From positions 576,001 through 640,000 of the forward strand of contig CM000433.1 in NCBI GenBank assembly GCA_000165345.1: a stretch of 64,000 bases of DNA. The letters are read 5' to 3'. The translations under genes and the position numbers were made by a program. Under the pieces are notes generated by a model. That model was given only the letters and a program-made list of their open reading frames with translations. It did no database searches and was not told where the DNA came from. This document shows, in pieces, positions 62,243-62,332 of this stretch; position 1 is the stretch's first letter, and each line of letters opens with the position of its first letter.

Positions 62243-62332
62243 TGCATGCATGCAATCATTAATTTTTAACTTACGTGGAAACACGTAAGCAAAAAAAAAT
62301 TGCGCAAAATTTGCACATGAATGCCGGTATAG
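62243..62332. promoter_or_regulatory. promoter module of the DHH gene: TGCATGCATGCA, perfect inverted repeat cttacgtg-gaaa-cacgtaag (62270-62289), TTGCGCAAA, TGCCGGTAT
   Basis: Direct reading. It lies 160-250 bp upstream of the ATG at 62492. Confidence 0.5.

Follow-up and report, generated by a model that had tools for sequence, protein, structure and literature searches.

A CCGG palindrome often fused to AP2_1 boxes, a candidate promoter element in Cryptosporidium parvum and related species

Little is understood of how Cryptosporidium regulates its genes; promoter motifs of the genus have so far been grouped into about six families, and factors have been assigned only to AP2 and E2F (PMC12246861). 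A short palindrome with a CCGG core recurs in the intergenic regions of one segment of chromosome 5 of C. parvum Iowa II. Is it a genuine regulatory element, and what might read it? The segment (here, the window) comprises 64,000 nucleotides (nt), positions 576,001 to 640,000 of contig CM000433.1 (assembly GCA_000165345.1), was assigned to this chromosome by exact protein matches, runs from cgd5_2640 to cgd5_2850, and is 23% non-coding in a map based on open reading frames (ORFs). An original prediction, made from the sequence of the window, had joined the palindrome to the AP2_1 box TGCATGCA and, in places, to inverted repeats built on CACGT. We lengthened the C. parvum sequence by ca. 10 kb per side, giving ca. 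82 kb of one chromosome with 20.6 kb of non-coding DNA, and compared it with the syntenic loci of C. ubiquitum, chipmunk genotype I, C. canis (50% GC), C. felis, C. bovis, and a GC-rich species from a public sequencing run. In non-coding DNA, the palindrome is a real element kept by selection, and it is probably the binding site of a transcription factor, as judged from its sequence and arrangement.

The palindrome is concentrated in non-coding DNA

The sequences listed in the original prediction were all found at their positions in the window. The palindrome is a 10-mer, typically ATRCCGGTAT, with RTRCCGGYRY as its general form and RYRCCGGYRY as the form counted in the window, and a symmetrized count matrix shows that it is often lengthened to CA-ATRCCGGTAT-TG. 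Allowing at most one mismatch, ATACCGGTAT occurs 11 times in the window against 0.47 expected, a count reached by none of 100 dinucleotide-preserving shuffles. Seven of the nine RYRCCGGYRY sites fall within the small non-coding fraction (binomial P = 9e-4), where the density of the palindrome is about ten-fold higher than in coding DNA. RYR/YRY flanks accompany 7 of 11 CCGG cores in non-coding DNA versus 2 of 16 in coding DNA (Fisher P = 0.009). The excess over shuffled sequence and over coding DNA that the original prediction implied was borne out in the window.

When k-mers were scanned without bias across the 20.6 kb of non-coding DNA, the hexamer family GCATGC/TGCATG came first, the E2F family (GGCGCC and GGCGGG) second, and CCGGTA third (15 occurrences versus 1.6 expected; z = 10.5), so that the motif is no product of selective reading. 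Chance is effectively excluded for the motif class, though not for individual weak sites such as that at 17101. Most palindromes (4079, 8329, 41543, and 62321) are found 170 to 400 nt upstream of annotated ATGs, but three copies are placed otherwise: at -1,065, within an ORF, and in a convergent spacer, respectively.

Most alignable palindromes are islands of conservation

In the comparison with C. ubiquitum, five of the six alignable intergenic palindromes are unchanged in the CCGG core and identical at 8 or more of the 10 bases, against a background of 56% intergenic identity in which 23% of 10-mers are identical at 8 or more positions (binomial estimate, P of ca. 0.003). The palindromes also stand out as islands in multispecies alignments (A1, A2, A3, A5, and A6) that include two species with ca. 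50% GC.

The best-conserved module (31136 to 31208) is located upstream of the WH2 gene cgd5_2750 and consists of TCCACAT (31136), TGCATGCA (31156), ATACCGGTAT (31165), which starts 1 nt past the AP2_1 box, and TTTCCACAT (31200 to 31208). In this spacer (A1), the islands ATGCATGCA, AYACCGGTRTT, the invariant TTTCCACAT, and ATACCGTT..TTACATGCA are retained in C. parvum, chipmunk genotype I, C. ubiquitum, C. canis, and the GC-rich species, while the rest has diverged. Upstream of cgd5_2730 (module at 26865 to 26956), TGCATGCA (26865) and a second TGCATGCA (26949) flank CAATGCCGGTATTGCAT (26908 to 26924), which holds the palindrome ATGCCGGTAT at 26910. CCGGTAT is kept there in the same five species (A2), directly after TGCATGCAA in C. 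canis and the GC-rich species. The module of the minus-strand gene cgd5_2790 (41535 to 41576) reads CACATGCA-ATACCGGTGT (41535 to 41552; palindrome at 41543), followed by GCATGC (41571), and its counterparts (A3) are GCATGCG-ATGCCGGTAT in C. ubiquitum and GCATGTA-ATGCCGGCAT in chipmunk genotype I. The variant GTGCCGGTAC (4079 to 4088), 267 nt upstream of cgd5_2660, a strongly female-specific gene, is identical at 10 of 10 positions in C. ubiquitum (A5), in which TGCATGCA is found 48 nt upstream and ATGTGGA downstream. Finally, in the promoter of the ADH gene cgd5_2670 (8294 to 8360), ATGTGGACA (8294) precedes ATACCGGTAT (8329), which is fused to TGTGTGCAACATGCAAATTTAT and belongs to a 35-nt block, TACCGGTATTGTGTGCAACATGCAAATTTAT, identical in C. 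ubiquitum (A6). This promoter contains no strict TGCATGCA.

Two sites did not share this pattern. The one at 17101 (ATACCGGCAT, 17101 to 17110, between cgd5_2690 and cgd5_2700) retains 1 of 10 aligned bases in C. ubiquitum, whose orthologous spacer has no CCGG, and is probably a lineage-specific or chance match. Likewise, in the relative at 2876, the CCGG reads CCAA in C. ubiquitum. The DHH-domain gene promoter (cgd5_2850) and the module inside the VPS13 ORF were compared with C. tyzzeri only, and since the two species are 98 to 100% identical at both loci, the comparison is uninformative; the DHH palindrome at 62321 is identical in a promoter that is 98% identical overall. A homologue search with the C-terminal half of VPS13 gave no match, and one with a DHH fragment gave only short Logan contigs, in which the promoter ends after 112 nt.

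A case of loss was found past the WH2 gene, in a convergent 3'-3' spacer in which C. ubiquitum (L001:12792-12825) and chipmunk genotype I (L002:12780-12803) have a palindrome together with TGCATGCA. In C. parvum (ca. 35010 to 35060), CATGCATG boxes remain and the palindrome has decayed to ATGGAGGGTAT at ca. 35014, which indicates that the element turns over.

Frequent fusion to the AP2_1 box

The AP2_1 motif was reportedly given as TGCATGCA by Bankier in 2003 and appears in Oberstaller 2013 as well. According to published work, it is bound in vitro by several AP2 domains of C. parvum, among them those of cgd2_3490, cgd4_1110 (AP2-F), and cgd8_3230 (PMC4117751, PMC12246861), and it occurs 13 times in the window versus 0.54 expected. 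The original prediction held that palindrome and box are in fixed association at 5 to 60 bp. This holds only in part, the association being neither universal nor at that distance. Altogether, three to four of seven palindromes have a strict box in their vicinity (P of ca. 0.01 to 0.05): a strict TGCATGCA is present within 50 nt of two of seven intergenic palindromes (P = 0.12; range, 0.05 to 0.28), and GCATGC is found within 80 nt of four of them (permutation P = 0.014; range, 0.01 to 0.05). The boxes claimed at 8327 to 8356 and 17099 to 17114 turned out to be only loose relatives (ACATGCA and CCGGCATG, respectively). Most TGCATGCA boxes in the window have no palindrome, and palindromes also occur without TGCATGCA.

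What survived of the association is a frequent direct fusion. TGCAT or ATGCA abuts the palindrome with a gap of 0 to 1 nt at 5 of 11 sites in the 82-kb region (26910, 31165, 41543, 54813, and L011:3613). The null expectation is ca. 0.016 per site (P of ca. 5e-7 for a criterion chosen after seeing the data), or 0.064 per site under a stricter null confined to positions within 100 nt of GCATGC. The abutting junction is kept in orthologues, in the forms TGCATGCA-a-ACACCGGTAT, TGCATGCA-t-ATACCGGTGT, GCATGCG-ATGCCGGTAT, and TGCATGCA-a-ACGCCGGTAT. The palindrome is thus often fused to a TGCAT-type AP2 box in an arrangement conserved across species, but since in C. parvum a strict AP2 box is missing near two conserved palindromes (4079 and 8329), the association is frequent rather than obligatory.

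Partner motifs and occurrences elsewhere in the genome

A second companion, ATGTGGA(C/A)A, absent from the original prediction, is located ca. 10 to 40 nt from the palindrome or the AP2 box at 2837, 8294, 31136, 31202, and 54801, although on its own it is not over-represented (10 occurrences versus 7.7 expected in the whole window). It matches both A[T/A]G[T/A]GGA.A, an unassigned motif found upstream of class II oocyst wall protein genes (Oberstaller 2013; PMC3734150) and Motif5, TTGTCCACATK, upstream of long non-coding RNAs (lncRNAs) (Li 2021; PMC7840661 supplement). This motif shares its modules with the palindrome and provides the invariant TTTCCACAT island in A1. Unlike the palindrome, it is oriented and non-palindromic; it is a partner with a site of its own.

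The two CACGT inverted repeats of the original prediction exist, but their link to the module was not upheld. The heptamer TTACGTG, which has a bZIP-like ACGT core, is enriched by itself (6 versus 1.34 expected, at 2811, 2849, 16725, 29161, 62271, and 62282, all intergenic). Four of the six copies make up the two inverted-repeat pairs, which are opposite in geometry and have no consistent arrangement relative to the palindrome. For these reasons, we set them outside the module.

The combination of palindrome, AP2_1 box, and ATGTGGA(C/A)A was found in three further instances in the published lncRNA sequences (PMC7840661 supplement), namely, Cp_lnc_51 (ATGTGGACA ... GCATGTATACCGGTACATGT ... TGCATGCA), Cp_lnc_62 (GAACCGGTAT ... 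TGCATGTA ... ATGTGGACAA ... TGCATGCA), and Cp_lnc_256 (GTACCGGTATTG amid three GCATGC boxes). Strict palindromic 10-mers are otherwise rare in this file, which is mostly antisense to coding sequence. A possible earlier description, MEME Motif4 (CCCATACCAGGTGGA) of Li 2021, was discarded, as a 15-bp tandem repeat in front of a single lncRNA accounts for it.

The palindrome among known motifs

The literature covered contains no CCGG-type motif for C. parvum, in agreement with the novelty claimed for the palindrome. We found none in Mullapudi 2007, the 25 motifs of Oberstaller 2013, the AP2 protein-binding microarray study, the AP2-F ablation paper, the top three motifs of a 2025 ATAC-seq preprint, or the motif, AP2, and Myb factor tables of a 2025 review, a coverage to which Bankier 2003 and Walzer 2024 do not belong. 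In full-text searches, ACCGGT or CCGGTA combined with Cryptosporidium yielded nothing but primer sequences. Apicomplexan promoter motifs are a known class, to which the element appears to add a member not described before. With AP2_1 it shares palindromic form, over-representation in non-coding DNA, and interspecies conservation, and the two adjoin in about half of the cases. They differ in their cores (CCGG versus TGCA), and each occurs without the other. The palindrome is not itself an AP2_1 site, since RTRCCGGYRY does not contain TGCAT and no CCGG is present in the C. parvum AP2 motifs of PMC4117751 or PMC12246861. Nor is it an E2F/DP site: its CCGG core has A/T-rich flanks and does not conform to [C/G]GCGC[G/C] or GGCGGG, and the E2F sites nearby are separate.

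Among DNA-binding families in general, the canonical Myb site is YAACGG/CNGTTR. CCGGTA does not fit CNGTTR, nor does the palindrome itself; only variants such as ATACCGTTAT (L002:12780 and L003:9113) do fit, and A1 includes the variant ATACCGTTAAT. Still, the half-site CCGGTA is one base away from CCGTTA, and together with the ATACCGTTAT variants, this makes a Myb-type protein a lead, not a finding. The C. parvum genome encodes several DNA-binding Myb proteins with no known motif (2025 review). Its DNA-binding Myb proteins include cgd6_4510, cgd3_2510, and cgd3_1120.

Dimers bind both the Grainyhead/CP2 palindrome AACCGGTT and the RFX X-box, GTNRCC-N0-3-RGYAAC. These sites have in common with ours the ACCGGT or TRCC-GGYA core and the dyad symmetry, whereas the outer positions are TA/AT here versus AA/TT or GT/AC. 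To our knowledge, neither family has been reported in Apicomplexa. A parallel to the proposed mechanism is the Plasmodium female gametocyte element TGTRNNYACA, which is recognized by AP2-FG and its partner PFG. Like the arrangement proposed here, it is a 10-bp dyad read by an AP2 protein with a partner at female promoters, but the sequence and the genus differ, and any female specificity of our palindrome is hypothetical.

A candidate composite promoter element

Altogether, we regard it as rather probable that the palindrome is a promoter element of the clade of C. parvum, C. ubiquitum, and C. canis, the predicted site of a dimeric or two-domain transcription factor that forms a composite with AP2_1. 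A symmetric site of 10 to 14 bp fits a dimeric factor. The composite module would extend over ca. 20 to 70 bp, 170 to 400 nt upstream of start codons, with about half of the palindromes fused (gap of 0 to 1 nt) to a TGCAT-type AP2_1 box and with ATGTGGA(C/A)A within ca. 30 to 40 nt of the palindrome. The palindrome-binding factor and an ApiAP2 protein bound to TGCATGCA would occupy adjacent sites and act together, which would refine the time at which AP2_1-bearing promoters fire. Here, we infer protein binding, the dimer stoichiometry, the cooperation with AP2, and any stage specificity from sequence.

Several observations weigh against such an element. One copy is located 1,065 nt upstream of an ATG, another is inside an ORF, and a third (in C. 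ubiquitum) is in a convergent 3'-3' spacer. For about half of the palindromes, among them in C. parvum the conserved copies at 4079 and 8329, the vicinity holds no strict AP2 box, and the abutment was, as said above, selected post hoc. Nothing resembling the palindrome is found among the published protein-binding microarray motifs of C. parvum AP2 domains. The region examined amounts to only ca. 82 kb of one chromosome. Moreover, the palindrome was not found in the orthologous spacers of C. felis or C. bovis; the element seems confined to the C. parvum/C. canis clade.

The alternatives are less well supported than a new promoter element. It is unlikely, first, that there is no separate factor and that the palindrome is recognized, through an extended or secondary specificity, by a TGCAT-binding ApiAP2 protein or by a multi-domain or oligomeric AP2 complex reading TGCATGCA and ATRCCGGTAT as one long site. 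The near-zero gap at 5 of 11 sites and its conservation in orthologues would be expected in that case, the shared CA/TG turns CATGCA-ATACCGGTAT-TGCATG into one long palindrome at 54811 to 54830, and four AP2 proteins yielded no microarray motif. However, the conserved palindromes at 4079 and 8329 have no attached TGCAT (the latter being fused to a GTGTGCA-type box), most TGCATGCA boxes of the window have no palindrome, and no AP2 domain gave a CCGG motif on arrays that held all 10-mers.

Slightly less likely again is a chromatin or architectural element, such as a boundary or the start of unannotated or antisense transcripts. The copies in the VPS13 ORF (54813) and in the convergent 3'-3' spacer (L001:12792 and L002:12780) would suit this role, as would the copy 1 kb upstream of the WH2 ATG with no ORF in between and the presence of the module inside published long intergenic non-coding RNA sequences. 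In contrast, most of the conserved copies are 170 to 400 nt upstream of start codons, accompanied by E2F, G-box, and AP2 sites typical of promoters, and the published lncRNA listing has no entry at the VPS13 genes.

An element acting in RNA, within the 5' untranslated region (UTR), for example, in the translational repression of maternal mRNAs in female gametes, is highly improbable. The flanked genes are female enriched, some assembled transcripts contain the module, and the neighboring inverted repeat of the DHH promoter (62270 to 62289) would form a stable hairpin as RNA (predicted fold, -12.1 kcal/mol; z = -7). Nevertheless, a perfect dyad with symmetric CA...TG flanks is the signature of double-stranded DNA recognition, a self-complementary RNA of 10 nt has no loop, and one arm of the hairpin carries an uncompensated change in C. 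tyzzeri. Lastly, a chance or compositional artifact, or a local peculiarity of this chromosome segment, is scarcely credible: the restricted region, the unconserved sites at 17101 and 2876, and the silence of earlier genome-wide de novo motif searches would agree with it, but not the shuffled controls, the third rank among hexamer families, the conservation across species with 30% and 50% GC, or the three further examples elsewhere in the genome.

Expression of the flanked genes

The original prediction proposed relating the flagged genes to expression. We used the supplement of Tandel 2019, comparing sorted female with asexual parasites (log2 fold change). Among palindrome-flanked genes, the values were +6.05 for cgd5_2660, +2.27 for cgd5_2750, +2.42 for cgd5_2790, +3.76 for cgd5_2840 (mean, 7.0), +5.01 for cgd5_2850, and +1.24 for cgd5_2600. 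The flanked genes are mostly up in females, as are several motif-less neighbors: six of the seven palindrome-flanked genes with data were female-up versus about four of seven motif-less ones, in a small sample. Evidence unfavorable to a role in female expression comes from genes without a palindrome that are also up (cgd5_2680, +5.85; cgd5_2690, +5.63; cgd5_2830, +2.59), from cgd5_2620, whose divergent spacer contains ACGCCGGTAT and which is asexual-up (-3.31), and from ADH, which is absent from the Tandel 2019 differential list. We downgraded the female-specific reading on account of the motif-less neighbors that share the female bias and of the motif-bearing spacer that belongs to an asexual-up gene. 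A function of the palindrome in females or in late stages would be compatible with these data.

The TGCAT-binding AP2-F (cgd4_1110) and cgd2_3490 are female-specific (2025 review), and no female commitment factor is known (PMC13657310). A more elaborate scheme, which we consider possible but doubtful, would have a protein of the Cryptosporidium clade, perhaps Myb-type or otherwise non-AP2, docking on the palindrome next to AP2-F or cgd2_3490, the AP2 proteins that bind TGCATGCA and are female-specific, within a super-palindrome of 18 to 26 bp, TGCATG-CAATACCGGTATTG-CATGCA. Together with ATGTGGACA, this would constitute a late or female promoter code, and the VPS13 copy would be an internal promoter for a C-terminal VPS13 transcript.

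Whatever its stage, a short conserved palindrome offers a concrete bait for pull-down or protein-binding assays, e.g., TGCATGCAATACCGGTATTGCATGCA. It also provides a rule, open to testing, that may explain why similar behavior is limited to some of the promoters with TGCATGCA, and compact promoter modules could serve for stage-specific transgene expression.

Other sites and features of the window

In the promoter of the DHH-domain gene cgd5_2850, two overlapping AP2_1 boxes (TGCATGCATGCA, 62243 to 62254) are followed by the inverted repeat CTTACGTG-GAAA-CACGTAAG (62270 to 62289), made of two TTACGTG units, and by TTGCGCAA (62300 to 62307), a palindrome with a GCGC core situated between the repeat and the CCGG palindrome. 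The latter (ATGCCGGTAT, 62321 to 62330) is preceded by CACATGA and is located 66 nt past TGCATGCATGCA and 171 nt upstream of the ATG.

The module that the original prediction placed inside the VPS13 ORF at 54788 to 54875 is present, with ATACCGGTAT at 54813 between GCATGC (54793) and TGCATGCA (54823). It extends from 54793 to 54830 and also includes ATGTGGACA (54801); CAATACCGGTATTG (54811 to 54824), which holds ATACCGGTAT, is a perfect 14-bp palindrome. In the old gene model of cgd5_2840, the ATG precedes the module by 640 nt, and the peptide encoded at the module is TYTCMPMWTSIPVLHAGS. VPS13 is split into cgd5_2830 (2294 amino acids [aa], partial) and cgd5_2840 (2645 aa) in older and some newer annotations and is a single protein of 4976 to 4989 aa in other assemblies; in the window, the ORF is interrupted by scattered N bases at 53978 to 54134. 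The VPS13 ORF carries a full three-motif promoter-like module, and the female difference between cgd5_2840 and cgd5_2830 could reflect either an internal promoter or plain 3' bias.

Upstream of the WH2 gene, the 1,065 nt that separate the module from the annotated ATG (31175 to 32229, plus strand) contain a spurious 47-aa ORF as the sole one of at least 40 aa, which points to an extended 5' UTR, an exon missing from the annotation, or a distinct transcript. In the ADH promoter, TGTGTGCAACATGCAAATTTAT (8339 to 8360) contains an AP2_2-like GTGTGC box and the octamer-like ATGCAAAT. About 6.2 kb upstream of the window start, L011:3613-3643 holds a tandem pair, GTACCGGCAT-tTGCAT ... TTACCGGTAT, in which a palindrome has an abutting TGCAT, in the divergent spacer of the leucine aminopeptidase gene cgd5_2600 and a histidine phosphatase gene.

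The divergent cgd5_2760/Arf promoter contains a relative with a CCCG core, ACGATACCCGTATCGT (36778 to 36793; ATACCCGTAT at 36780), followed by the E2F site TGGCGGGAAAC within 36778 to 36810. CGATACCCGT is invariant there in C. parvum, chipmunk genotype I, C. ubiquitum, and C. felis (A4), always with CCCG and never CCGG, and is probably a distinct element. At 2808 to 2885, the inverted repeat ATACACGTAAT/ATTACGTGTAT flanks CGCATGCATGCA and ATGTGGACA and is followed by TATACCGGCAA (2875 to 2885).

The genes of the window include cgd5_2640 (213 to 2426), cgd5_2660 (4346 to 8167), the ADH/mannitol dehydrogenase gene cgd5_2670 (8559 to 9623), cgd5_2740, encoding a WYLE protein (29401 to 30939), the WH2 gene cgd5_2750 (32230 to 34788), the katanin/fidgetin AAA ATPase gene cgd5_2790 (39540 to 41153, minus strand), VPS13 (cgd5_2830/2840; 47111 to 62108), and the 5' part of cgd5_2850 (ATG at 62492). 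An Rfam scan of the whole window matched no family. A non-coding block at ca. 2895 to 3000 is ca. 90% identical between C. parvum and C. ubiquitum, against a spacer average of 54%. It contains no ORF, matched no Rfam family, and could represent a non-coding RNA or an exon that the annotation lacks. The DHH gene cgd5_2850 (62492 to 64000) contains several short segments with in-frame stops, a structure that fits multiple small introns and is unusual in an intron-poor genome.

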